This document shows positions 3,291 through 62,536 of a stretch of DNA of 64,000 nucleotides, piece by piece. The notes under the pieces are model-generated. The model saw only the letters and a list, made by a program, of their open reading frames with translations. It searched no databases and was not told the DNA's origin. The position numbers and the translations under genes are program-made. This DNA comes from Bacillota bacterium (GTDB lineage Bacteria; Bacillota; Clostridia; Ch29): the NCBI GenBank assembly GCA_013540605.1, contig JABVCK010000007.1:27231-91230 (forward strand), in the 5' to 3' direction. Each line of letters begins with the position of its first letter. Position 1 is the stretch's first letter.

Positions 3291-4461
3291 TGCGAAACCT
3301 CCTTGTTCGTTTCTTGCGCCGGTGTATTGCCCTCAGCAGCCATGGGCGGTATATCTTCACCGACCCGTGAAAGCACAGCTCCTGACAGCAAAAGCACCTT
3401 ATGCACTTATCCAGGTCTACCCTGGGTTTGTTGTCCTGCATGGTTATTGCCCCGGGCGGGCAGACCCTGTAACAGTCACCGCACGCAGCGCAGGATTCCA
3501 GATCAAAAACCGGTTCAGGCTTTACCATCCTATTTATCATATCTACGATAAACCGCGGATATTTGCCTTCTATAAAGGATGCATTGACAATAGCCGGTGT
3601 GTTAAACCTCTTTATCGCCAAACCGCCCATGCCGTCGCCCAATAGCTGGATGTTGTTCATATCCCCGGTGAACAATCCCCTATGTCTGGCTTTGATTATG
3701 GTCGGAACATCGTTTGGATCAATGCCTATCAGGCTTACGGCTGCAAAATCAAGCGCAAAGGGGTTTTCGGATGCCAGGATAATGCCCGAATTCACCAGCC
3801 GGCCAGATGAAGGTCCTTCCCCTTCCATACCCACAACCCCATCGATTATTGAGAGCTTTGGTTTTATATAGGTGCATACATCCACCAGCATGTTTGCAAA
3901 ATCTCCGGTATCAGGCATGTTGAAATGATACTCGGCCTTGAGGATTCCCGGGATAACCCCAAACAGGTTTTTCACTGCACCGGTGAACAACATCATGCCA
4001 TGTGTCTTAAGCTTGGCAAAGGATATGACTACATCTGCTTTCTCCACACAGTTCATCACGGTCAGGTTTTTTATAACGGAACCCTGTGGATGGGATACTT
4101 CCCTGATATCCGTGTCATAGTTGAGCACTGCCCCCGTCGTTTTAGCCACATCTTCCATCCCCGTTGCCCTATATACAGCTCGCAGCGCAGTCTGATTGTA
4201 CGGACCCCCGGGGCTGTCCCCTATGATCGGTACGCCCCCGGCTTCAAGGACCTCCCTGCATAGAGCTTCGACAAGGGAAGGATGGGTTGTCACACCATCC
4301 CCGGGCTTTTTCCGCATCACAAGATTGGCCTTTACGAGAACCTTATCCCCGTTTTTCACAAACTTATGTATTCCTCCGAGGTTGTTCAATGAAGCATGCA
4401 TAGCTTTAGCAGCGTTTTGTCTTTCGTAGTTTTCGCATTTCACCACTGATACTCTATACAC
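3280..4461 (-). CDS. DUF362 domain protein with C-terminal 2x[4Fe-4S] ferredoxin motifs
   Basis: 393 aa. N-terminus VSVVKCENYE...GDKVLVKANL is DUF362-like. C-terminus has CAACGDCYRVCP and CIRCFCCQELC cluster motifs. Overlaps the trmL start by 11 nt. Confidence 0.75.
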   Translation of the reverse strand: MYRVSVVKCENYERQNAAKAMHASLNNLGGIHKFVKNGDKVLVKANLVMRKKPGDGVTTHPSLVEALCREVLEAGGVPIIGDSPGGPYNQTALRAVYRATGMEDVAKTTGAVLNYDTDIREVSHPQGSVIKNLTVMNCVEKADVVISFAKLKTHGMMLFTGAVKNLFGVIPGILKAEYHFNMPDTGDFANMLVDVCTYIKPKLSIIDGVVGMEGEGPSSGRLVNSGIILASENPFALDFAAVSLIGIDPNDVPTIIKARHRGLFTGDMNNIQLLGDGMGGLAIKRFNTPAIVNASFIEGKYPRFIVDMINRMVKPEPVFDLESCAACGDCYRVCPPGAITMQDNKPRVDLDKCIRCFCCQELCFHGSVKIYRPWLLRAIHRRKKRTRRFRNEF

Positions 4462-4649
4462 GGCTATTCCCCTTCAGTTATTTTTGGTGAACTTCTAATA
4501 CTTTTTCTTTGATGCTACTTGTTATCATTTTCCGCGGTTTTGCGTTAAATATCCTCAGAATCATTTTACTATTTTGTTATTAAATTGACAAAAGGCCGAT
4601 AATGGTATATATTGTAGTTAGCCTGTATACAATTTGGGGTGGTGTTGTC

Positions 4650-5087: not shown

Positions 5088-5116
5088 ATATAGACGGCCT
5101 GTGCCGTCTATATTTT
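5088..5116. terminator. Bidirectional hairpin terminator between convergent genes
   Basis: AATATAGACGGC(ctgt)GCCGTCTATATT is a 12-bp stem flanked by an A-run on one side and a T-run on the other. Confidence 0.65.
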
Positions 5117-5321
5117 AGCTCTTATGCTGCAAGCGGATGACTAGCTTATCTAGACATCTGTAGGCATCAATAATCTTGATTCCTAGATCTACTGTCTCTA
5201 CCCCATACTGCTCTATTAGGCGGTTTATTTCTTCTTCATGTCCGCTATTTATCTTGTGAAGAAGCTCATGACCCGAAATCCTGTTTTCTATTCGGGTCAG
5301 CACCTGGTGAATTGCTGCCAT
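5115..5321 (-). CDS. Hypothetical small protein (68 aa)
   Basis: The ORF track gives 5115..5384. The ATG at 5321 follows a GAGGAAGGTG RBS. The sequence MAAIHQVLTRIENRISGHELLHK... is not recognised. Confidence 0.5.
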   Translation of the reverse strand: MAAIHQVLTRIENRISGHELLHKINSGHEEEINRLIEQYGVETVDLGIKIIDAYRCLDKLVIRLQHKS

Positions 5322-5572
5322 AAAATCACCTTCCTCAGCCACACTTATCACCTCAATAAGCAGTATCAGCTTTAATTTAATCAAGCTCCGCTTCGCTATT
5401 CATACTCAGCTTGATTATGGAATAATTCTCCAAAGAATTCAAATACCCTTCCTGCTTTGCCCAGTTTGTTAAAAATAATTTCCGGTCTACCGTTCATTTA
5501 CGTGATAGGACAAGCCGTAATAATATCCCCAACGGTGGATAAGCTGTCTGCAAATTGGCTTAATCGGTACCG

Positions 5573-6184
5573 TTAATCCCTTTCGAGATGGGATATATCG
5601 TTGAACAATGACATTACCGGAAACCCGTCAAATACTTTTATTACCGTAACACTGCAGTTTGATATTTGATAGCTCCAATGGCTTTCAATTCCCTTGCCCA
5701 CAAGGTGTGATACCATAGTCCTTATTGCACCTGCGTGACTTACAATTAAAAATCGTCCGCTCCTATTCTCTCTGATTACTCTGTCGAGCCAGGAGTTTAT
5801 TCTCTCATAAGCGATCTCAAGGCTCTCGCCACCCGGTACGGCATAGTTCCTCCAGTCGCTTCGCCACTCTTTCATATATCCGGGGTAAAGTTCTTCCAGT
5901 TGTATACGGCTCATGTTTTCCCACTCGCCAAAATGTATTTCTTTTATGTTATCCACTTTGATTATTTCAAGACCATGAAACCTGTTGATTATTGTCGCTG
6001 TCCTGAGTGCCCTTAAAAGAGGACTGCTGTATATCCTGTCAAACTCCTCCCCCCTCAACCTTAGCGCAAGTCTTTCAGCCTGTTGAACACCTTTCCGGTC
6101 AAGTTGGGTATCAGTCCAGCCCTGATAAAGCATCTGCTGATTACCTTTTGTTTCCCCGTGCCTTACTATAGTGAGTTCAAGCAC
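5573..6184 (-). CDS. cobC: Histidine phosphatase family protein, probable alpha-ribazole phosphatase
   Basis: 203 aa. RHGETKGN catalytic motif, GTG start after a GAGGTGG RBS, and position directly downstream of cobU-cobO-cobS. Confidence 0.8.
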   Translation of the reverse strand: MLELTIVRHGETKGNQQMLYQGWTDTQLDRKGVQQAERLALRLRGEEFDRIYSSPLLRALRTATIINRFHGLEIIKVDNIKEIHFGEWENMSRIQLEELYPGYMKEWRSDWRNYAVPGGESLEIAYERINSWLDRVIRENRSGRFLIVSHAGAIRTMVSHLVGKGIESHWSYQISNCSVTVIKVFDGFPVMSLFNDISHLERD

Positions 6185-6203
6185 TAGTTTCCACCTCTCT
6201 TGG

Positions 6204-6385
6204 TAGTTCGTAGTTGGTAGTTCGTAGTTCGTAGTTCACAGATCGCAGATCACAGTTTGCAGATCCTAGATCCTAGATCTTAGATCTTAGGTGCTAGTCA
6301 CTAATCACTGGCCACTAGTTACTGATTTCTGAAGTCTGACGTCTGTCATCTGGTCACTGATCACTGACCACTGATCACTGTACTG
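6204..6385. repeat. Heptad array A: 25-26 consecutive 7-nt units in perfect register
   Basis: Units counted by hand: TAGTTCG TAGTTGG TAGTTCG TAGTTCG TAGTTCA CAGATCG CAGATCA CAGTTTG CAGATCC TAGATCC TAGATCT TAGATCT TAGGTGC TAGTCAC TAATCAC TGGCCAC TAGTTAC TGATTTC TGAAGTC TGACGTC TGTCATC TGGTCAC TGATCAC TGACCAC TGATCAC. Confidence 0.95.
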
Positions 6386-7116
6386 AGAACCGCAAAAACT
6401 GTCAGGAACAGCACCGAGCATATTTCCCCAACAGCCCCCAGCGTATCTCCTGTCATCCCCCCTATTTTCCTGTCAAACAACCGGATATAGCCAAGAACAG
6501 CAGCAGTAGCCGCAGCGATGGATATTACCGTGCATAACGCTCCCGTTAAATAGTAAAGTATCATACCGGTCAGGGCCCCGGAAAAAAGCGCATCCTTCCA
6601 TCCCACACCCTTTATAAAGAGGCTCCCCAGACCGTCTTCCCTCGCGTTTTTGGAAAATGACGCCCCTAGAACCATGGAAAGTCTGGACAGCACGGGCATG
6701 GCCAGAACAGCCACCGGATTATTTATCGCCCTTATCAGGGACACCTTTAGCAGCAGGACTCCCGTTATGGCAAGGACGCCATGGGTACCTAAGCGGCTGT
6801 CCTTCATTACGGCTATCATCTCGTCCCCGTTTTTATTACTGAAAAGGCCGTCGAAGGTATCCCCAAGGCCATCCTGGTGCAGCCCGCCGGTGATCACGGT
6901 TTCCAGCAACACGGCAGCAACCGCTGCAACCAGGGTGTCAAATGCGGACAGCATCCTATAGGACGCCCAAAGGATTAGACCTATCACTGCCCCAACAATG
7001 GGAAACAGCTTCATCCCTTTCTGAAAGTCTGAGTCTTCTACCTGCAGTTGAATTGGTATGGGTAGAATCGTAGTAAACTGGAGCATTAACAGCAGCCTTT
7101 TCATCTCACCACTCAA
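6361..7116 (-). CDS. cobS: Adenosylcobinamide-GDP ribazoletransferase (cobalamin synthase)
   Basis: 251 aa polytopic membrane protein. LQFTTILPIP ... HQDGLGDTFDG are CobS motifs. The start is ambiguous (TTG at 7116 or ATG at 7104). The last 7 codons and the stop lie inside heptad array A. Confidence 0.88.
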   Translation of the reverse strand: MSGEMKRLLLMLQFTTILPIPIQLQVEDSDFQKGMKLFPIVGAVIGLILWASYRMLSAFDTLVAAVAAVLLETVITGGLHQDGLGDTFDGLFSNKNGDEMIAVMKDSRLGTHGVLAITGVLLLKVSLIRAINNPVAVLAMPVLSRLSMVLGASFSKNAREDGLGSLFIKGVGWKDALFSGALTGMILYYLTGALCTVISIAAATAAVLGYIRLFDRKIGGMTGDTLGAVGEICSVLFLTVFAVLSTVISGQ

Positions 7117-9541: not shown

Positions 9542-9728
9542 CTCAATCTTTAAACTACACAAACAGGGGGACACAGGACAAACATGGGGACAGGGACCAT
9601 ATTTGGTTGTTGTAAGCCCAGGGCTGTCAAACGAACTACCTGTCCCCTTGTTTGTGTGTGATAATACCCGCTGCCGCTTTTGATTCTCTGTTGCCTTGGC
9701 ATCCTTCATCACCCAATTTATAGTTTAT
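9510..9728 (-). ncRNA. Candidate sRNA with two C-rich GUCCCCNUGUUUGU motifs (RsaE/RoxS-like)
   Basis: Minus-strand promoter TTGACG-17 nt-TAAACT (9763..9735). About 215 nt downstream is a strong terminator. The RNA contains GUCCCCAUGUUUGUCC and GUCCCCCUGUUUGUGU just before the terminator, plus a complementary G-rich segment CACAAACAAGGGGACAGG. Confidence 0.45.
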
Positions 9729-9769: not shown

Positions 9770-9805
9770 AGAACCGTCCCCTTGTCTAGAACCGTCCCCT
9801 TGTCT
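9770..9805. repeat. Perfect 18-bp tandem duplication AGAACCGTCCCCTTGTCT x2
   Basis: Read directly. Lies immediately upstream of the sRNA-candidate promoter. The same 16-mer CAGAACCGTCCCCTTG recurs twice at 49131-49176. Confidence 0.9.
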
Positions 9806-9862
9806 ATACGCAACCTGGGCAATTCTTTGACACTTAGAATGGGTAGTAACAGTAACAAAAAA

Positions 9863-11923: not shown

Positions 11924-13321
11924 TTAGGCCGGTGTATCCGCTTCTTCGACATCAGTATTGGCGCTGATGTCGTCAGGACCCCTTCGTATCAAGCCGTTCT
12001 CCGGTTTGTAATAATCGGATGACAGCAGCTCTTCCTTCTGTGGTTCCCCGTTGATTATCACTTGCCTATAGGTTTTGACCCTGTATCCTTTCCGCGCTTC
12101 CTTTTCTACAACCTGTTCGCCAACTCCGAGGGTGGGGTCTATAACGGTCTCCACAACTGGCTCAATGACATTCACGGTTTCGGTCCGGATTTTGACCTTG
12201 ATGTCCTCCTCCCTTTCCTCGCCGTAAATGGCTGCATATATCCTGTTACCGCTGACCCAGCTGGCGATATAAATATGCCCATCCGTATTGTTTCTGAACC
12301 GGAAATCCAGTACCTTATCCACCACCGTGGCGTCCTGCCCCATATTAACATAGGCCGACGGAATTGTATGGTTGTGCCTCTCTACAATCTCCAGGTTGGC
12401 ATAGAGAACAGCATTGTAAAGGGTGCTTGATACCTGGCATACTCCGCCTCCGATCCCGGGAACCAGTTCCCCTTTGAAAATTACAGGGGCTTCCTGGTAA
12501 CCGTTTTCAGCAATTCTCGGACCCGTTACCTGGTTAAAGGAAAACTCCTCTCCAGGCTTCAGCACACTACCCTCAATAGCTGTCGAAGCAATTTTCAGGT
12601 TTTCGCTTCTGCCTGTGCTCTGGGTGTTAAAAACCGTGGAAAAAACACTCCATCGTGAGCTTATTCTTTCAAGCTTTTGCCCGGTTACTTCCGGTATCTT
12701 AGTCTCAACAACAAGCTGCTTTGGCGAAAAATCCATTCTCCGCAAATCCGCTGCGATTTCATCAACTGTTGTATCTATATCTACTCCTATTCCGTATACT
12801 TCAGGAGTAACAATAAACTCTTCTCCCGCCCGTCTAATGGTCGCATTTACGGGTGGTGTCGAGATTTCCCTGTCAATTCTCTCAAGAAAAGCCCTCAAAG
12901 CAAGGGCATCAAAATTGAATTCGAGCTCGACCTCCTCTCCGTTCTCTTTTAAGTCCATGATTTTTTTGATCCTATCCATAGGATTGCCATCCCTGCCAAT
13001 CCCGTAGGCCTTCTCGACCGCCTTATAATAACTGAATGTGCCTCCGATACCGTCGAGGTTTATTTCCCACGTGCCGCCGCCGTAGTTTAACGTTAATTTC
13101 TCCCGCTGCAGCACAGGCTTCATCACAGCTTCAACAGCATTTACCGCTTCCTGCTGGCTCATGCCCCCCACGTCTATACCGTTGATTTTTATTCCTTCAT
13201 AGATTATTTCCCTGTTCAGGGAAAAGAAGACCAGGGCAAGGCTCATAAGCAATGCCAGTCCCATCAATCCTGCTCCGATTTTTGGCCATCGTGGTGCAAA
13301 GGCCCTTTCTGCTGTACTCAT
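11924..13321 (-). CDS. VanW family protein with C-terminal G5 domain
   Basis: 465 aa. N-terminal TM anchor, VanW core (GGGVCQVSSTLYNAVLYANLEIVERHNH) and a C-terminal G5-like segment (KGYRVKTYRQVIINGE). Confidence 0.85.
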   Translation of the reverse strand: MSTAERAFAPRWPKIGAGLMGLALLMSLALVFFSLNREIIYEGIKINGIDVGGMSQQEAVNAVEAVMKPVLQREKLTLNYGGGTWEINLDGIGGTFSYYKAVEKAYGIGRDGNPMDRIKKIMDLKENGEEVELEFNFDALALRAFLERIDREISTPPVNATIRRAGEEFIVTPEVYGIGVDIDTTVDEIAADLRRMDFSPKQLVVETKIPEVTGQKLERISSRWSVFSTVFNTQSTGRSENLKIASTAIEGSVLKPGEEFSFNQVTGPRIAENGYQEAPVIFKGELVPGIGGGVCQVSSTLYNAVLYANLEIVERHNHTIPSAYVNMGQDATVVDKVLDFRFRNNTDGHIYIASWVSGNRIYAAIYGEEREEDIKVKIRTETVNVIEPVVETVIDPTLGVGEQVVEKEARKGYRVKTYRQVIINGEPQKEELLSSDYYKPENGLIRRGPDDISANTDVEEADTPA

Positions 13322-13466
13322 GATAATCCCCCAAACAATGAAATCCCCTTAATAAATACATATTATTATAATGCAAAATAATACTATGTACCCTTGAAAC
13401 AATCATATATTTAAAACCGGTCTTGTTCAATATCCAATAATCACTCTTACTGGCATCTATTTGAAG

Positions 13467-15455
13467 TCAGCTTCTCGTCCAGGATATGGATATTTCATCA
13501 CCATCGCTTATAATATCAGTATATCTCGCTTTAATCCCGTTCACGGCCAGCTCTACCTTTCCCTTCGCCCTGCTCAGGTCTACATCAATATGGTTGAAAA
13601 TATCAACAAAAATATATGGCTCCGGCCTCTGGGGAAGTTTGACCTCCTCTCCGTTAACTCTTACTGTTATTCCAACCCCGTCCGGGATTGGTTTATCCAT
13701 GCAATATTCTATGCTGTCGCCATTGCTGAGCGCATATTCATAAGCAGCGGGCCTGCCATTGACCCTGTATGAGCAGCCTTGCTTTGGAAGTTCGCAGCTG
13801 TCAATGAGTTCTCCGAGGGTCCTGATTCTTGTTATTTCAAGCCTATCGCCATCCGAAATATACCGGTCGGGAGGTGCAGCAGCACCATTGATGCTCCACC
13901 TGGCCGGAAGGGTTATCCTTTTACCTGCGACTATAACCTGACAGGATTCCGAATGAACAATATCCTTTATTGTAATACGGGCTTTCTCTCCTTTCAGGGC
14001 ATCATACACAAAAACTTCATCTCCATTTTTCAGAGGCCGGTCAAGGGATCCTGCTTCTCCGTTTATCAGTATCCTTGCCGGCTGCCCCGGTTCTCCCTTG
14101 ATTTCCCTTGCCTCGCCGTTGACGAAGAACCTTAACGGCTCGCCCCTGGAAGAAATGAGTTTCCTTGGGTTGAACCCTATTGCCAGCAGGGCGTCGCTCA
14201 CGGTCATCTGCCTGGTGTTCAGCATTCTGAGATTATTACCGTTGACGGATATGCCGATAAAATGGTCTCCGGATGCCCTATAACCGGCTAAAGCTATGCC
14301 AACCGGAGTAATCATCTCTGGTCCGGAGAAATCCGGCACCAATAGTTTTAAGGCGCTGTTCTCCTCCAGGTGTTTTAAGCCCACCCTGGTGACAGGCAGA
14401 CCCAGGTGGCAGGACAGGCTTTCCTTAAGCCCCGGTGTCAGACTGCCTCCTCCAACGCAGAATACTGCGCTCGGTGCCCCTTGATTGTTTTCCTTTATGC
14501 TGTCAGCTATATCAGCCGCAAGTTTTTCAACAATAGGATGTATTATATCAATCAACTGTGCCCTGCTTATCTCCGCCTCATCTCCCAGGGCATTTCTATA
14601 ACTAACTCTGTCCTTGCCCTTTGACGCCTCCAGCTTGATTCTTTCTGCCGTGTTGAAGTCGGTTAAAAGTTTCTGGGCGATTTCTTCTGTGATTTCGTCC
14701 CCTGCCACCGAGACCATGGAGTATGCAGTTATCGTACCGGCCCGCGTTATTGCTATATCCGAAGTCCCGGCGCCGATGTCCACCATTGCAAGGTTGAGCA
14801 GCCTCAGGTTTTCCGGGATGGCAACTCTTATGGCCGCAATAGGCTCCAGAGTGAGATTGATTACTTCAAGACCTGCCCGCTCCATCACTGTATAAAGGCT
14901 GTCAACAACCGTTCTGGGCAGGAATGTGGAAATGACTTCCACTCCCATGCTTGTTCCCCTATGTCCCTCCAGGCTTTTTATTATCATGTTGTCAAGATAG
15001 TAGTTTATCACGCTGTATCCAACACAGTAATAGTTGGAGTGGTTCTTATAGCGCTCCTGGACTTCCTGCTGGGCTTTCTGCATGGCCTTGAGCTCAAGAC
15101 CGCTGATAAACGCCTTATCTGCAACATCCATACCCTCTACATCCATTTCAGCCAAAGCTCTATGGGTTATCAAGGACCTTCCTGCCGCAGCAATGGCAAC
15201 GTGATTGAGGGTACAACCGTTCCTTTCCTCCAGTTTTTCCTTAACCCGTTTGACAACGCCGGTTACCTGGGTAATGTCGTGTATTTGTCCATCATACATA
15301 TTTCTATCCGTATGCTCCATGATCTCCGCATCAAAGATTTCAAAGTAATCCCGGTCCGGACTACCGTTTCCCAGTATGCCTACAACCGTACGCGTCCCGA
15401 TATCTAAAGCAAAAATCGTATTAGCGCACTTATCATGCACAGTACTCACCACCAA
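13467..15455 (-). CDS. FtsA/actin-like ATPase domain protein with repeated C-terminal beta-grasp-like modules
   Basis: 662 aa. N-terminal about 400 aa is an FtsA-like sugar-kinase/actin fold (FALDIGTRTVVG, DIGAGTSDI, GGGS). The C-terminal about 260 aa contains 4 copies of (I/V)NG-x9-12-(N/D)GD-x-(I/V/L). Confidence 0.7.
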   Translation of the reverse strand: MVVSTVHDKCANTIFALDIGTRTVVGILGNGSPDRDYFEIFDAEIMEHTDRNMYDGQIHDITQVTGVVKRVKEKLEERNGCTLNHVAIAAAGRSLITHRALAEMDVEGMDVADKAFISGLELKAMQKAQQEVQERYKNHSNYYCVGYSVINYYLDNMIIKSLEGHRGTSMGVEVISTFLPRTVVDSLYTVMERAGLEVINLTLEPIAAIRVAIPENLRLLNLAMVDIGAGTSDIAITRAGTITAYSMVSVAGDEITEEIAQKLLTDFNTAERIKLEASKGKDRVSYRNALGDEAEISRAQLIDIIHPIVEKLAADIADSIKENNQGAPSAVFCVGGGSLTPGLKESLSCHLGLPVTRVGLKHLEENSALKLLVPDFSGPEMITPVGIALAGYRASGDHFIGISVNGNNLRMLNTRQMTVSDALLAIGFNPRKLISSRGEPLRFFVNGEAREIKGEPGQPARILINGEAGSLDRPLKNGDEVFVYDALKGEKARITIKDIVHSESCQVIVAGKRITLPARWSINGAAAPPDRYISDGDRLEITRIRTLGELIDSCELPKQGCSYRVNGRPAAYEYALSNGDSIEYCMDKPIPDGVGITVRVNGEEVKLPQRPEPYIFVDIFNHIDVDLSRAKGKVELAVNGIKARYTDIISDGDEISISWTRS

Positions 15456-15528: not shown

Positions 15529-16215
15529 TTATTCCGATTCCCCGTAATTATGGTAATAACTGCACAAATCGTAATTATGGTAATAACTGCACAAATGCAC
15601 AATAGGGCACTGACTGCACTTAGGCTTCCTTGCGCTGCAGATTTTTCTCCCGTGATGTATGAGCCAGTGATGCGCCCTTGACCATTTGCTCTGCGGTATC
15701 CTTTCCATGAGCTGTCTTTCCGTCTCTTCCACATCCTTGGAATCGGCAAGCCCTATTCTATTGGAAACCCTGAAAACATGGGTATCTACAGCGATTGCAT
15801 CGACACCGAAGGCGTTGCTCACGACCACGTTGGCGGTTTTCCTTCCCACACCGGGAAGTGAAGTCAGCTCTTCAACGGTACGCGGTACTTGACCTCCATA
15901 TTTCTCTTCTATAATCCTGCTTGCTTCCTTTATGTTCGCAGCCTTTGTCTTATAAAACCCACACGACCTGATTATTTCTTCAATTTCCTCCAAAGGTGCG
16001 TTGGCCAGGGTACCGGCGTCAGGGTATCTGCCGAATAATTCCGGGGTTACCCTGTTAACCTGCCTGTCGGTTGTCTGCGCTGAGAGCATTGTAGCAATAA
16101 GCAGCTGAAACGGCGTCTTAAATATAAGCTCGGTGGTGGCTTTCGGATAGGCCTTCTCAAGTATACCGAGGATTTGTTTTATCCTTTGACTGTCTGTACC
16201 ATTTTTTTGTTCCAT
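15529..16215 (-). CDS. nth: Endonuclease III
   Basis: 228 aa. HhH-GPD region (LTSLPGVGRKTANVV) and a C-x6-C-x2-C-x5-C cluster loop. The C-terminus is extended by a 27-bp tandem duplication. Confidence 0.9.
   Translation of the reverse strand: MEQKNGTDSQRIKQILGILEKAYPKATTELIFKTPFQLLIATMLSAQTTDRQVNRVTPELFGRYPDAGTLANAPLEEIEEIIRSCGFYKTKAANIKEASRIIEEKYGGQVPRTVEELTSLPGVGRKTANVVVSNAFGVDAIAVDTHVFRVSNRIGLADSKDVEETERQLMERIPQSKWSRAHHWLIHHGRKICSARKPKCSQCPIVHLCSYYHNYDLCSYYHNYGESE
15543..15596. repeat. Perfect 27-bp tandem duplication inside the 3' end of nth
   Basis: CGTAATTATGGTAATAACTGCACAAAT x2, encoding LCSYYHNY(D/G) twice. Confidence 0.95.
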
Positions 16216-16254
16216 GGAAATCCTCCCCAGTCCCCTTTCCTTATATACTATCTA

Positions 16255-16387
16255 CAGATAACAGTTGTCAGTTGTCAGTTACCAGTGATCAGTTATCAGA
16301 AATCAGTTACCAGTTGTCAGTGGCTAGTGATCAGTGACTAGCACCTGTGATCTGTGATCTGTGATCTACCAACTACGAACTAACATG
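16255..16387. repeat. Heptad array B (inverted orientation relative to A), 18-19 units in register
   Basis: CAGATAA CAGTTGT CAGTTGT CAGTTAC CAGTGAT CAGTTAT CAGAAAT CAGTTAC CAGTTGT CAGTGGC TAGTGAT CAGTGAC TAGCACC TGTGATC TGTGATC TGTGATC TACCAAC TACGAAC. Shares GTGACTAGCACCT with the reverse complement of array A. Confidence 0.95.
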
Positions 16388-16404
16388 AGGTGTGTCCCCT
16401 TTCC

Positions 16405-16686
16405 CTATACCCTATCTATATGATACCCTGAGATTTCAAACCTACCATCCATTTCAATAAATTTCATCACAGAATCCAGTATCCTGTCAACCTGGACTGA
16501 GCTGTTCGCCACGCATGCAATACCAAGGGATGCAACCTGCCACTTGTCGTTATTCCCGACCTCTGCCACCGAAGCATTAAATTTGGCCCTCAGCCTCTCG
16601 GTAAGGCTTTTCAATGCCCGTCTCTTATCCTTCAGGCTGAAAGAATCGTGCAAAAATATTTCCAATCTGCATATGCCGGTTATCAT
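16405..16686 (-). CDS. DUF503 domain protein (YlxP-like)
   Basis: 93 aa. The pattern CRLEIFLHDSFSLKDKRRALKSL is typical of DUF503. Confidence 0.8.
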   Translation of the reverse strand: MITGICRLEIFLHDSFSLKDKRRALKSLTERLRAKFNASVAEVGNNDKWQVASLGIACVANSSVQVDRILDSVMKFIEMDGRFEISGYHIDRV

Positions 16687-20354: not shown

Positions 20355-20479
20355 CAGCTTGTAGTTCGTAGAATATAGATCTCAGTTGGCAGATCGCAGT
20401 TCGCAGGATTTTTAACTGACATCTGATAACTGATCACTGGCAACTGGCAACTGATAGCTGAACACTGTCCACTGGCAAA
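20352..20479. repeat. Heptad array C, about 17 units with one -1 register slip
   Basis: Begins at the htrA TAG stop. Reads TAGTTCG TAGAATA TAGATCT CAGTTGG CAGATCG CAGTTCG CAGGATT ... TGATAAC TGATCAC TGGCAAC TGGCAAC TGATAGC TGAACAC TGTCCAC. Confidence 0.9.
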
Positions 20480-20485
20480 GATTTA

Positions 20486-20507
20486 AGCCGGTCCTGACGG
20501 ACCGGCT
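20486..20507. terminator. Hairpin terminator between convergent htrA-like and B3/4 genes
   Basis: AGCCGGTCC(tgac)GGACCGGCT is a 9-bp GC-rich stem. T-tracts are weak on both sides. Confidence 0.55.
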
Positions 20508-23204: not shown

Positions 23205-23336
23205 ATATACCCATTACCTCCGCTGCCAAACGCTGTCCTAGAGTTATAGTTATATTATAACATTTCCTTATCTCTTCCAAAACTTTAAACTAACTTCTGT
23301 ATCTTTTGCGGCCTCATATGGTGTAAAATAGTAATA

Positions 23337-23480
23337 TAGTTCGTAGATCACAGATCGCAGGTCGCAGGTGCAAGATCACAGATCACAGGTACTAGATTAT
23401 AGTTCGTAGTTCGTAGTTCGTAGTTGGCTGCTGGCAACCTAGAACTGATAACTGGGAACTGACAACTGAGAACTGATATG
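23337..23480. repeat. Heptad array D, 20 units in perfect register
   Basis: TAGTTCG TAGATCA CAGATCG CAGGTCG CAGGTGC AAGATCA CAGATCA CAGGTAC TAGATTA TAGTTCG x3 TAGTTGG, then TGGCAAC CTAGAAC TGATAAC TGGGAAC TGACAAC TGAGAAC. Ends 10 nt before the AGGAGG RBS of the next gene. Confidence 0.95.
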
Positions 23481-23506
23481 ACATTAAAAAAGGAGGTTTG
23501 AATCTT

Positions 23507-29102: not shown

Positions 29103-29234
29103 GGTATGGGGACACACCGCTGCTACGCGGGTATTCCTTGCCGCGGAATGTCCCCGATCGGTATGGGGACACACCGCTGCTACGCGGGTATTCCTTGCCG
29201 CGGAATGTCCCCGATCGGTATGGGGACACACCGC
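29103..29234. repeat. 57-bp tandem repeat x2.3, each unit a GGGGACA...TGTCCCC-closed hairpin element
   Basis: The unit GGTATGGGGACACACCGCTGCTACGCGGGTATTCCTTGCCGCGGAATGTCCCCGATC occurs at 29103-29159 and 29160-29216 (identical), with a third partial copy at 29217-29234. Confidence 0.95.
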
Positions 29235-29238
29235 CTGT

Positions 29239-29411
29239 CAGTTCCCAGTTACCAGATGACAAACTTCAGTTGTCAGTTCCCGATTCCCAGTTGCCAGTGC
29301 ATAGGGTAAAGCTAGAGGGAAAAGACCTATAAGCTTTGCCTTAGCAACTACGAACTACCAACTACGAACTACGAACTAATATCGGGTACCTGCGATCTGC
29401 CATCTGCCATC
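29239..29411. repeat. Heptad array E (inverted orientation), two arms split by a 40-bp spacer
   Basis: Arm 1, 29239-29301: CAGTTCC CAGTTAC CAGATGA CAAACTT CAGTTGT CAGTTCC CGATTCC CAGTTGC CAGTGCA. The spacer has an AAAGCT/AGCTTT hairpin. Arm 2, 29342-29411: TAGCAAC TACGAAC TACCAAC TACGAAC TACGAAC ... TGCGATC TGCCATC TGCCATC. Confidence 0.9.
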
Positions 29412-29493
29412 TATAACCTAAATAATAGTCATATCAGCCAGTGTGTCAATATATCTATATATTAATATCAGCCCGGATATTTGTAAATAAAAC

Positions 29494-49076: not shown

Positions 49077-49123
49077 AGCAATTTTAAACTCGATCATGAA
49101 AGTACACCAGCAGGCTTCTTAAA

Positions 49124-49190
49124 TATATCAACAGAACCGTCCCCTTGATATATATCAACAGAACCGTCCCCTTGATATACCCTTGATATA
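49124..49190. repeat. 27-bp tandem repeat x2.4, each unit a hairpin TATATCAA(cagaaccgtcccc)TTGATATA
   Basis: Units at 49124-49150 and 49151-49177, plus a partial third. The loop carries the same CAGAACCGTCCCC string as 9770-9805. Confidence 0.9.
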
Positions 49191-61483: not shown

Positions 61484-62536
61484 TCATTTTAGATTATATT
61501 TTTTCAAACGATAATGTAAGCGTTGTCTACTCATACCTAAGTCAGCTGCTGCTCTGGCAACGTTCCCCCTATTCCGTCTAACAGCCGCAATAATCGTCTC
61601 TCTTTCCTCCTTATTAGATAGGGACGTTCCTCCCGCTGAGGTGTGTCCCCCTTCATTATAGTGGCGCATGAACAGCTCTTCCAGTGTAGGAGGCTCCGCC
61701 GTCAGGGATTTGATCCCCAGGGGCGCCAGGGTCCGCATGACCTCCTCCATGGCGTTTGCGTCCACTGAAAAACGCCACTTTGTCCCCTGGCGGGATAGAT
61801 CATGGGCTCCGGGCAATCTGTCCAAACCTTCGGCAGAGTTGGCAGTCTCCACAGTAACAGTGGTACGGGTCAGGTGGCGCAGCTCCGCCAGGGTCCCTGA
61901 TTCCACAACCCGGCCTTGCCGGATGATGCCGATGCGGTCGCATGTAGCCTCAACTTCCGCCAGAATATGGCTGGACAGGAATACTGTCTTGCCTGACTGC
62001 TTTATTTCAGCGATATACTCCCGGAAGACCAGCTCCATCAGCGGGTCCAATCCCGATGTGGGCTCATCCAGGATGAACAGTTCGGCGTCGGAAGCGAAGG
62101 CCGCTACCAGGGCCGCCTTCTGCCGGTTGCCCTTGGAGTAGGCACGGCATTTCTTGGTGGGGTCCAGTCCAAAACGTTCCAGCAGTTCTTTGCGCCGGTC
62201 AGGGTCAACCCCCCCGTGCAATCTGCCAAGAAGGTCGATTACCTCACCGCCGGACAGATTGGGCCAAAGGGTGACATCCCCAGGCACATAGGCGATACGC
62301 CGGTGCAATGCCACCGCGTCACGCCAGGGATCGCCCCCCAGCAAAGCAACCTCTCCCGCATCCTTGCGCAGCATGCCTAACAGGATACGGATGGTAGTGG
62401 TTTTTCCTGCTCCATTGGGGCCGATAAATCCATACACCTCCCCTTTCTCCACTGTAAGATCGACACCACGTAAGGCCTGCTGCTTGCCAAAGGCCTTAGC
62501 GAGCTTCTTTATTTCGATAATATTCACGCTTAGCAC
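61484..62536 (-). CDS. ABC-2-type transporter ATP-binding protein whose ORF runs on into a Fis-type (HTH_8) DNA-binding tail; probable chimera
   Basis: Residues 1 to about 293 are a complete ABC ATPase (GPNGAGKTT, SKGNRQK, LFILDEPTSGLD, ending ..LEELFMRHY). The last 57 aa (..ERETIIAAVRRNRGNVARAAADLGMSRQRLHYRLKKYNL) look like the C-terminus of an NtrC-type activator. Confidence 0.7.
   Translation of the reverse strand: MLSVNIIEIKKLAKAFGKQQALRGVDLTVEKGEVYGFIGPNGAGKTTTIRILLGMLRKDAGEVALLGGDPWRDAVALHRRIAYVPGDVTLWPNLSGGEVIDLLGRLHGGVDPDRRKELLERFGLDPTKKCRAYSKGNRQKAALVAAFASDAELFILDEPTSGLDPLMELVFREYIAEIKQSGKTVFLSSHILAEVEATCDRIGIIRQGRVVESGTLAELRHLTRTTVTVETANSAEGLDRLPGAHDLSRQGTKWRFSVDANAMEEVMRTLAPLGIKSLTAEPPTLEELFMRHYNEGGHTSAGGTSLSNKEERETIIAAVRRNRGNVARAAADLGMSRQRLHYRLKKYNLK

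Follow-up and report, generated by a model that had tools for sequence, protein, structure and literature searches.

A heterogeneous heptanucleotide repeat array between cobS and cobC in an uncultured Clostridia lineage

Introduction

Few long simple repeats are as common in bacteria as heptanucleotide arrays, which are still unexplained in both origin and function after more than 30 years. The STRR sequences of heterocystous cyanobacteria are represented by a report of three heptanucleotides in Calothrix (cited in PMC4692102), and the same source cites an intercistronic array of 26 GGGGATT units between pecE and pecF of Anabaena/Nostoc PCC 7120. Long simple sequence repeats (LSSRs) have units of 5-11 nt; as the work of Mrazek et al. 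(2007) is relayed in PMC4679880 and PMC4692102, the 7-nt class is the most abundant of these, is over-represented in intergenic DNA, occurs sporadically across phyla and has been proposed to arise by polymerase slippage. Direct repeats of the heptamer TAACTGA have been described in marine Beggiatoaceae, Cyanobacteria and Bacteroidetes (MacGregor 2015, PMC4679880). These are mixed with other heptamers, differ between strains by 7-nt indels, are missing in close relatives that have the same neighbouring genes, and carry stop codons that limit their overlap with genes (PMC4679880); the sets found in the Guaymas 'Maribeggiatoa' have 2-6 copies, are uniform, and are mostly forward-oriented just upstream of start codons (PMC4679880). 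Other examples include GGGAATC/GGGGATT arrays in Xanthomonas and Nostoc and the heptanucleotide repeat elements of Geobacter. The one heptameric repeat with a worked-out mechanism is that of the hmw1A 5'-UTR in Haemophilus influenzae, where the (ATCTTTC)n repeat of hmw1A and hmw2A forms one arm of a long hairpin that is cut by RNase III, and expression is inversely proportional to repeat length (PMC12721329).

Here we describe a heptad array, array A, at the cobS-cobC junction of an uncultured Clostridia lineage, within a 64-kb stretch of DNA that we refer to as a whole as the window. Arrays of this kind are known but poorly understood, and this one is a new occurrence in a Clostridia lineage. 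The window holds four other such arrays, which the first-pass annotation of this DNA had overlooked.

Results

Extent and composition of array A

By direct reading and a lag-7 scan, array A occupies positions 6203-6384 and comprises 26 in-register 7-nt units (182 bp) with no indel. The first-pass annotation had rightly described it as free of indels, and its counts of 8 GATC and 4 CTAG sites are exact; however, its size of 25 units (175 bp) is one unit short and its span of 6204-6385 is displaced by one base from the in-register reading. On the plus strand, five GTAGTTS units (6203-6237: GTAGTTC GTAGTTG GTAGTTC GTAGTTC GTAGTTC) are followed by four of the form RCAGWTY (6238-6265: ACAGATC GCAGATC ACAGTTT GCAGATC), four of the form YTAGRTS (6266-6293: CTAGATC CTAGATC TTAGATC TTAGGTG) and 13 of the form CTRNNNN (6294-6384: CTAGTCA CTAATCA CTGGCCA CTAGTTA CTGATTT CTGAAGT CTGACGT CTGTCAT CTGGTCA CTGATCA CTGACCA CTGATCA CTGTACT). 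Read on the minus strand, which is that of the mRNA, the array passes from CAGTNNN-type units through TAGSAYC/TAAGATC and TGYGATC to TACSAAC, and YAG or TAA recurs at an exact 7-nt spacing throughout the first 17 units.

Lag-7 identity in array A peaks at 0.80-0.84 in the lag-identity scan. Adjacent units differ by 2.2 nt on average, compared with 4.4 nt for random pairs of units. Tandem Repeats Finder (TRF) reports just the purer sub-blocks, whereas the lag-7 scan covers the whole of the array. At the other lags from 1 to 13, no region of the 64 kb rose above threshold, and the lag-7 scan of 20 shuffled windows returned no heptad array. An assembly artefact was ruled out because three further assemblies, obtained independently and with 99.3-100% DNA identity to the window, have the same array A over the part that they cover: an NCBI MAG (L124, GCA_030017455.1), a JGI contig (L126) and a Logan contig (L125) that ends at window position 6208, five bases short of the far end of the array. 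Among these four conspecific assemblies, window included, array A shows no length variation where it is covered. Array A displays the features by which 7-nt arrays of the LSSR/STRR type are recognized, namely exact head-to-tail 7-nt units beyond chance, several dispersed non-coding arrays, and whole-unit copy changes between relatives.

The cobS-cobC junction

The cobS gene (adenosylcobinamide-GDP ribazoletransferase; 6361-7116, minus strand) matches Pfam CobS and TIGR00317 above cut-off, and its true start is likely the ATG that gives the 247-aa product of public gene calls. The cobC gene (5573-6184, minus strand) encodes a His_Phos_1 protein of the alpha-ribazole phosphatase type, whose best NCBIfam match, TIGR03162 (alpha-ribazole phosphatase), scores 160.9 bits, just under the 162.9 cut-off; it begins at a GTG, and its N-terminus, MLELTIV, is conserved in relatives. 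As previously annotated, array A fills the gap between the two genes, which measures 176 nt from the cobS stop (6361-6363) to the cobC GTG (6184-6182), and supplies the end of CobS. The first 3.4 units of the array code for the last seven codons and the stop (6361-6384, minus strand; AGT ACA GTG ATC AGT GGT CAG TGA), so that the protein ends ...AVL STVISGQ with its last 24 nt inside the array. The ribosome-binding site of cobC was likewise correctly placed at the far end, where the Shine-Dalgarno sequence GAGAGGTGGA (6199-6190, minus strand) directly follows the last heptad, 5-6 nt upstream of the GTG. Array A has stops in all six frames, its longest open run being 25 codons. This would explain both why such arrays are confined to non-coding DNA and why CobS ends seven codons in.

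Does the array damage CobS? Past a conserved FL motif, the CobS tail varies among 13 homologues, and that of the window is the longest. Truncation of CobS by array A was ruled out on these grounds, and the array-coded tail is thus an extension or a replacement; it is probably harmless because the C-terminal tail of CobS is naturally variable.

Upstream of cobS, the identities of CobO, CobU, Ogt and DUF2225 were confirmed with Pfam and NCBIfam. The first-pass annotation had these genes right, but its premise that the operon is otherwise tightly coupled is weaker than it appeared, as cobS-cobC is the one operon junction that has a spacer in every relative examined.

Other arrays in the window

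All five heptad arrays detected by the lag-7 scan of the window are intergenic and lie between Pfam-supported genes. Array B (16255-16380, 18 units) is located between the DUF503 stop and the nth start, two genes on the same strand, and has the unit order of array A, although the strand that carries it is the other one with respect to transcription. On either side of array B is one copy of a 25-nt direct repeat (16230-16254 and 16394-16418, 88% identity) that includes a decayed copy of the DUF503 3' end; no flanking duplication was found at arrays A, C or D. Array C (20361-20479, about 17 units) lies between convergent htrA-like and B3_4 genes, with a terminator-like hairpin just after it at 20484-20505. 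Array D (23336-23482, about 21 units) is in a divergent queG-like/aminotransferase region and ends 15 nt before the aminotransferase start, and both B and D end within 15-40 nt of a start codon. Array E (29239-29420), in a divergent pseudouridine synthase/DUF421 region, consists of a CAGTNNN block (29239-29301) and a TACSAAC plus TGCSATC block (29346-29420), and is colinear with array D. On the canonical strand array A is sense on the mRNA and B and C are antisense, while D and E are in divergent regions. This lack of a fixed orientation, as between A and the pair B and C, is evidence against an RNA function that all members would share and that would depend on the strand.

TRF gave the consensus TAACTGA for array C and CAGTTAT for array B. 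Five of the seven TAACTGA copies in the window are inside these two arrays, where they stand 14 nt apart and alternate with other units; there is no window-wide enrichment of the heptamer (7 found vs 7.3 expected) and no exact copy in array A.

Several other repeats were seen in the window. Array E adjoins a perfect 57-nt tandem repeat (29103-29234, 2.3 copies), next to its CAGTNNN block, in which each unit has an inverted pair GGGGACA...TGTCCCC. The core of this repeat, GGGGACACACC, has two further copies on the minus strand, one at 16392 on the left flank of array B and one at 61643, and may represent another small family of dispersed repeats that accompanies the arrays. Perfect tandem repeats with CAAGGGGACGGTTCT on the minus strand were found at 9770-9806 (18 nt, two copies) and 49123-49179 (27 nt, two copies), and also at 9642. 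The octamer AAGGGGAC has 10 copies in the window, all of them on the minus strand with none on the plus strand, and could be a regulatory site or a dispersed repeat.

Unit order shared between arrays

The blocks of the five arrays follow the same canonical-strand order, CAGTNNN to TGYGATC to TACSAAC. Furthermore, a non-repetitive stretch of array A (minus strand; TAGTGGC CAGTGAT TAGTGAC TAGCACC T) is colinear with one in array B (plus strand; CAGTGGC TAGTGAT CAGTGAC TAGCACC T), and approximately this sequence (CAGTGGC TAGTGAT CAGTGAC TAGCACC) is found in arrays A and B and in two loci outside the window, L001 (a relative described below) and L129. Arrays D and E have TACGAAC TAWWATC NRGTACC TGYGATC in common, and arrays A, B, C and D share a TACGAAC-TA end. 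Unit-order shuffles never matched the observed alignment scores (A-B, z 6.8; D-E, z 5.5), values that are inflated by runs of like units.

The locus L129 was the one further match in a metagenome scan with a 22-mer common to A and B. Its array continues with units known from D and E (TAGTACC TGCGATC TGCGAAC) and lies antisense in a 3' region before a terminator. It has no overlap with the genes of the window, and its tetranucleotide signature (r 0.67) is as close as those of 7-kb chunks of the window itself and far exceeds that of unrelated loci, which is suggestive, but only suggestive, of a place in the window's lineage. Slippage alone does not account for a specific, non-repetitive unit order at unrelated loci; thus, some process of dispersal or gene conversion is needed.

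A wider scan for TACSAAC x3, with one genome per species, gave at least 118 stretches in many phyla, often composite arrays of drifting units; the phyla among the matches listed include Cyanobacteria, Bacteroidota, Planctomycetota, Acidobacteriota and candidate-phyla bacteria, together with several Clostridia. The scan covered this heptamer alone and is taken only as evidence that such arrays are widespread. A general rule across phyla, by which CAGT-type and TACSAAC units would occur on the same strand, found no support among 121 arrays of other phyla.

Comparison with relatives

The homologues of CobS all came from uncultured Clostridia/Bacillota, the named neighbours being Mahellales, Thermotaleaceae and similar groups. 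The first-pass annotation had proposed that the junction be compared in related genomes, and it proved to differ among them: array A has 26 units in conspecifics and 12 in one close relative, while four distant lineages have non-periodic spacers of 21-106 nt. The close relative (L001; CobS 90%, DNA about 88%) has the same array and the same CobS tail, and its alignment to the window leaves a gap of exactly 98 nt, equal to whole units, with 5/84 differences over the 12 shared units. In the distant lineages, the cobS-cobC spacer is 106 nt in L002-L004 (CobS 69%), 29 nt in L130 (62%), 21 nt in L005 (61%) and 50 nt in L131/L132 (57%). The earlier suggestion of a recent insertion is therefore borne out in substance, as the array is absent from the junction in four distant lineages and its unit number differs (12 vs 26) within the close pair.

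Similar differences were seen at other arrays. The DUF503-nth spacer, which holds array B in the window, is 189 nt there, as against 18-20 nt in L002 and in L005. L002 does carry one array of the family elsewhere, in the htrA/adh divergent region, which is array-free in the window; no arrays were found in 42 kb of L005, L130 and L131. Array B differs by one +7 and one -7 nt change even from its counterpart in L124, which is 99.3% identical, and all five indels between the window and L124 over 12.6 kb are copy changes in tandem repeats, L124 lacking one copy of a 27-nt repeat (window 15543-15596) and one of an 18-nt repeat (9789-9806). By these alignments the arrays are young, clade-restricted and subject to change by whole units, because they are absent in distant lineages, differ between L001 and the window (12 vs 26 units) and show 7-nt changes relative to L124. 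Relatives have the genes around arrays A, B and C in the same order.

The Shine-Dalgarno sequence of cobC is AGAGGTGG in L001, which has the array, and in the array-less L002, L131 and L132; in L005 and L130, cobC is preceded by other purine-rich sites instead. The retention of AGAGGTGG in L001, L002 and L132 indicates that cobC starts independently, array or no array.

At 5115-5573, downstream of cobC, the window has an 89-aa ORF without a family match, and then fur, and the same arrangement is present in L001 and L131. In two relatives at 61-62%, cobC is followed by cobyric-acid-synthase-like (CbiA/GATase_3), CbiB/CobD, aminotransferase and GHMP-kinase genes (L005, 11392-15834; L130, 4052-8563), and these are missing after cobC in the window, L001 and L131. 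By gene content, this part of the operon has been rearranged in some lineages. In L124, a 571-aa DDE_Tnp_1 transposase gene (12740-14455) lies between fur and DUF362 and is absent from the window (about 4461-4602). The public call for cobC of L001 (3401-4039) begins at an ATG inside the array, giving 212 aa, and is nine codons too long relative to the conserved MLELTIV start.

Logan short-read contigs of the window species end inside arrays, at runs of identical units: L125 in A (6208), and L127 in D (23426) and B (16353). As the arrays break short-read assemblies, they are probably under-counted in metagenome-assembled genomes.

Signals of function

The predicted fold of the mRNA strand of array A with its flanks (-58.3 kcal/mol) is no different from that of dinucleotide shuffles (-57.7 +/- 4.9; z -0.13), and a structured RNA or attenuator was ruled out on this basis. 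Rfam 15 gave no match at gathering score over the whole window and none at E<=1 over 5900-6700, which rules out a known RNA family. Promoter-like matches in the region show a modest excess (14 vs 7.9 +/- 2.4 in shuffles). Within array A, the search for an internal promoter or terminator gave only 9-of-12 promoter-like matches at the array edge and no terminator, and this candidate was rejected. Binding sites of the HutP/TRAP type would be triplet motifs at a fixed spacing that overlap a terminator or antiterminator. In array A, YAG/TAA recurs every 7 nt in 17 units, with no terminator or alternative structure, and orientation varies among the arrays.

The first-pass annotation had favoured a regulatory or processing role for the array in cobC expression. 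We found nothing to sustain this: the same kind of array occurs at four other intergenic sites, the fold is that of shuffled sequence, Rfam has no match, there is no notable promoter or terminator, and the array-less L002, L131 and L132 use the same Shine-Dalgarno sequence. By sequence comparison, a dedicated role for array A in cobC regulation is unsupported.

The arrays are dense in GATC (21 in 644 bp) and CTAG (8 in 644 bp). Elsewhere in the window, GATC is about 2-fold under-represented (119 observed vs 238 expected) and CTAG about 8-fold (31 observed vs 238 expected). We read this density as the result of amplifying units that happen to contain these sites, although it could be a sign of function. 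The avoidance of GATC outside the arrays might reflect a GATC-specific restriction system of the lineage.

Discussion

Array A is probably a lineage-specific, heterogeneous heptanucleotide tandem-repeat array of the STRR/LSSR/TAACTGA kind, which lengthens through slippage and is a passive part of the cobS-cobC transcript, with any effect on cobC a by-product. The arrays are found in non-coding DNA only, gain and lose whole 7-nt units, are made up of neighbouring units that are more alike than random ones, and have a unit order common to unrelated loci, the last of which slippage alone does not explain. Change in unit number at array A itself is seen between species and not among the four conspecific assemblies. 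We envisage that the window species and its ~88% relative (L001) inherited the array from a common ancestor in which it had been seeded where cobS ends, at the 3' edge of the gene, and that it would have grown by slipped-strand mispairing in replication or repair to 12 units in the latter and 26 in the former. Because nearly every unit has TAG, TGA or TAA, a period of seven would place a stop in each frame within <=25 codons, and CobS would read seven codons into the array and then stop. The remainder would be an unstructured spacer, a passive passenger on a transcript that cobS and cobC presumably share, and cobC would be translated from its own conserved Shine-Dalgarno sequence and GTG, as in array-less relatives. 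Any effect on cobC would be incidental to this history and not dedicated control.

Could the array instead be a cis-acting RNA platform? A protein with a 7-nt register, either S1/Csp/CsrA-like as proposed for TAACTGA repeats or HutP-like and reading NAG-N4 repeats, might bind the cobS-cobC mRNA and tune cobC translation or mRNA stability, with unit number serving as a rheostat, as with the hmw1A repeats. The exact spacing of YAG/TAA over the first 17 mRNA-strand units is consistent with such a platform, as are the termination of array A at the cobC Shine-Dalgarno sequence, the similar placement of arrays B and D shortly before start codons, and the variation in unit number between species; moreover, effects on expression have been proposed or shown for heptamer repeats near start codons of Beggiatoaceae, Nostoc and H. 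influenzae. However, the arrays do not keep one orientation on the mRNA (sense for A, antisense for B, C and L129), two of them (C and L129) are in 3' regions, and the heterogeneous units offer no single binding motif. The array is also absent in four related lineages in which the operon and the type of ribosome-binding site before cobC are retained, and, on the fold statistics given above, it has no hairpin comparable to that of the hmw 5'-UTR. We therefore regard an RNA platform as unlikely. The density of GATC and CTAG, both avoided elsewhere in the window, raises the further idea of a role at the level of DNA, in which the clustered sites would serve for methylation-dependent or restriction-related binding, as a hot spot of recombination or as a structural element of the DNA. 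The lack of an orientation preference fits a function of double-stranded DNA, but GATC is confined to some unit types and its count scales with how far these are amplified, a 7-bp period is out of step with the helical repeat, and the conserved gene order around A, B and C gives no sign of rearrangement there. Such a role is very improbable.

The shared unit order bears on how the arrays arose. They might be discrete mobile or templated insertions, either of a non-autonomous heptad element or of filler DNA copied from another array during repair, with no growth in place. This would agree with the common unit order and TACGAAC-TA end at the unrelated loci A, B, C and D, with the way in which the A/B 22-mer led to L129 and on to units of D and E, with the 25-nt duplication that flanks array B, and with a Chroococcidiopsis genome in which two arrays of the same composite order are on different contigs (L050 and L107). 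Yet there are no terminal inverted repeats at the array ends as read, A, C and D lack a flanking duplication, no associated transposase is present, and the shuffle test behind the unit-order argument is inflated by runs of like units. The difference between 12 and 26 units and the +7/-7 changes in array B also show growth in place after any insertion, and pure insertion is, in our judgement, quite unlikely. A miniature transposable element with target duplication was rejected, given the lack of inverted termini in the array ends as read and a duplication at B alone. It is more doubtful still that the arrays are dispersed copies of one composite heptad element (a CAGTNNN block, then CAGTGGC-TAGTGAY-TAGCACC, TGYGATC and TACSAAC-TA), spread among intergenic sites by copying, with a lineage-specific protein of 7-nt register as their possible reader, rather than independent microsatellites. 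If this were so, operons without other relation to each other (those of cobalamin salvage, nth, htrA, queG and others) would be linked by the arrays in a single network.

Whatever their origin, these arrays offer useful material. The cobS-cobC junction is a natural series (no array, 12 units and 26 units) in a conserved operon with a simple read-out, CobC. Together with array B, which has the opposite orientation between co-directional genes, it makes questions of slippage, spacer length and orientation directly testable. There is also a practical side, in that short-read assemblies break in the arrays and gene callers mis-set adjacent starts, as with cobC of L001.

How, then, does array A compare with the systems described so far? 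Like the hmw1A repeat, it is a heptamer array located upstream of a start codon (also, we infer, transcribed) whose length probably changes by slippage; unlike that repeat, it has mixed units, no hairpin and the same length in four conspecific assemblies where covered. It thus lacks both the uniform unit and the within-species length heterogeneity of a phase-variable contingency SSR, as judged from those four assemblies. The LSSRs, to the extent that their description is relayed in the papers cited above, are characterized by statistics of perfect or near-perfect repeats, whereas here a unit order is common to dispersed arrays.

The STRR sequences, too, are tandem 7-nt units in many dispersed intergenic arrays, including some within operons, and CAGTNNN is the commonest unit type in the arrays described here. 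Two of the three classic STRR units, those of Mazel et al. in 1990, reportedly take this CAGTNNN form on rotation (CCCCAGT and CAACAGT). Nonetheless, array A falls outside a strict definition of STRR: among named sources, the closest relatives of its CobS are MAGs of Clostridia/Bacillota, and the units differ from STRR1-3, although many have the CAGTNNN form. The host is an uncultured Clostridia and not a cyanobacterium, the arrays have blocks of drifting units where an STRR has one repeated unit, and they are not G-rich and are without quadruplex potential.

Finally, the TAACTGA repeats resemble these arrays in being intergenic, in mixing heptamers, in varying by 7-nt indels between strains, in being absent from relatives with the same gene order and in carrying stop codons that restrict how far they reach into genes. 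Unlike the 'Maribeggiatoa' sets, the arrays here have 12-26 mixed units, alternate TAACTGA with other units and vary in orientation, and array A, with 0 exact copies, is outside a strict definition that calls for two or more consecutive exact units. TAACTGA itself is nevertheless present in arrays B and C, so that the heptad phenomenon, this unit included, extends to an uncultured Clostridia lineage. Furthermore, the mRNA of array A carries CAGTNNN, the reverse-complement form of the TAACTGA repeats, with orientation varying among the arrays, and the 'reverse' translation given for those repeats, LSVISYQ, matches the CobS tail STVISGQ (PMC4679880).
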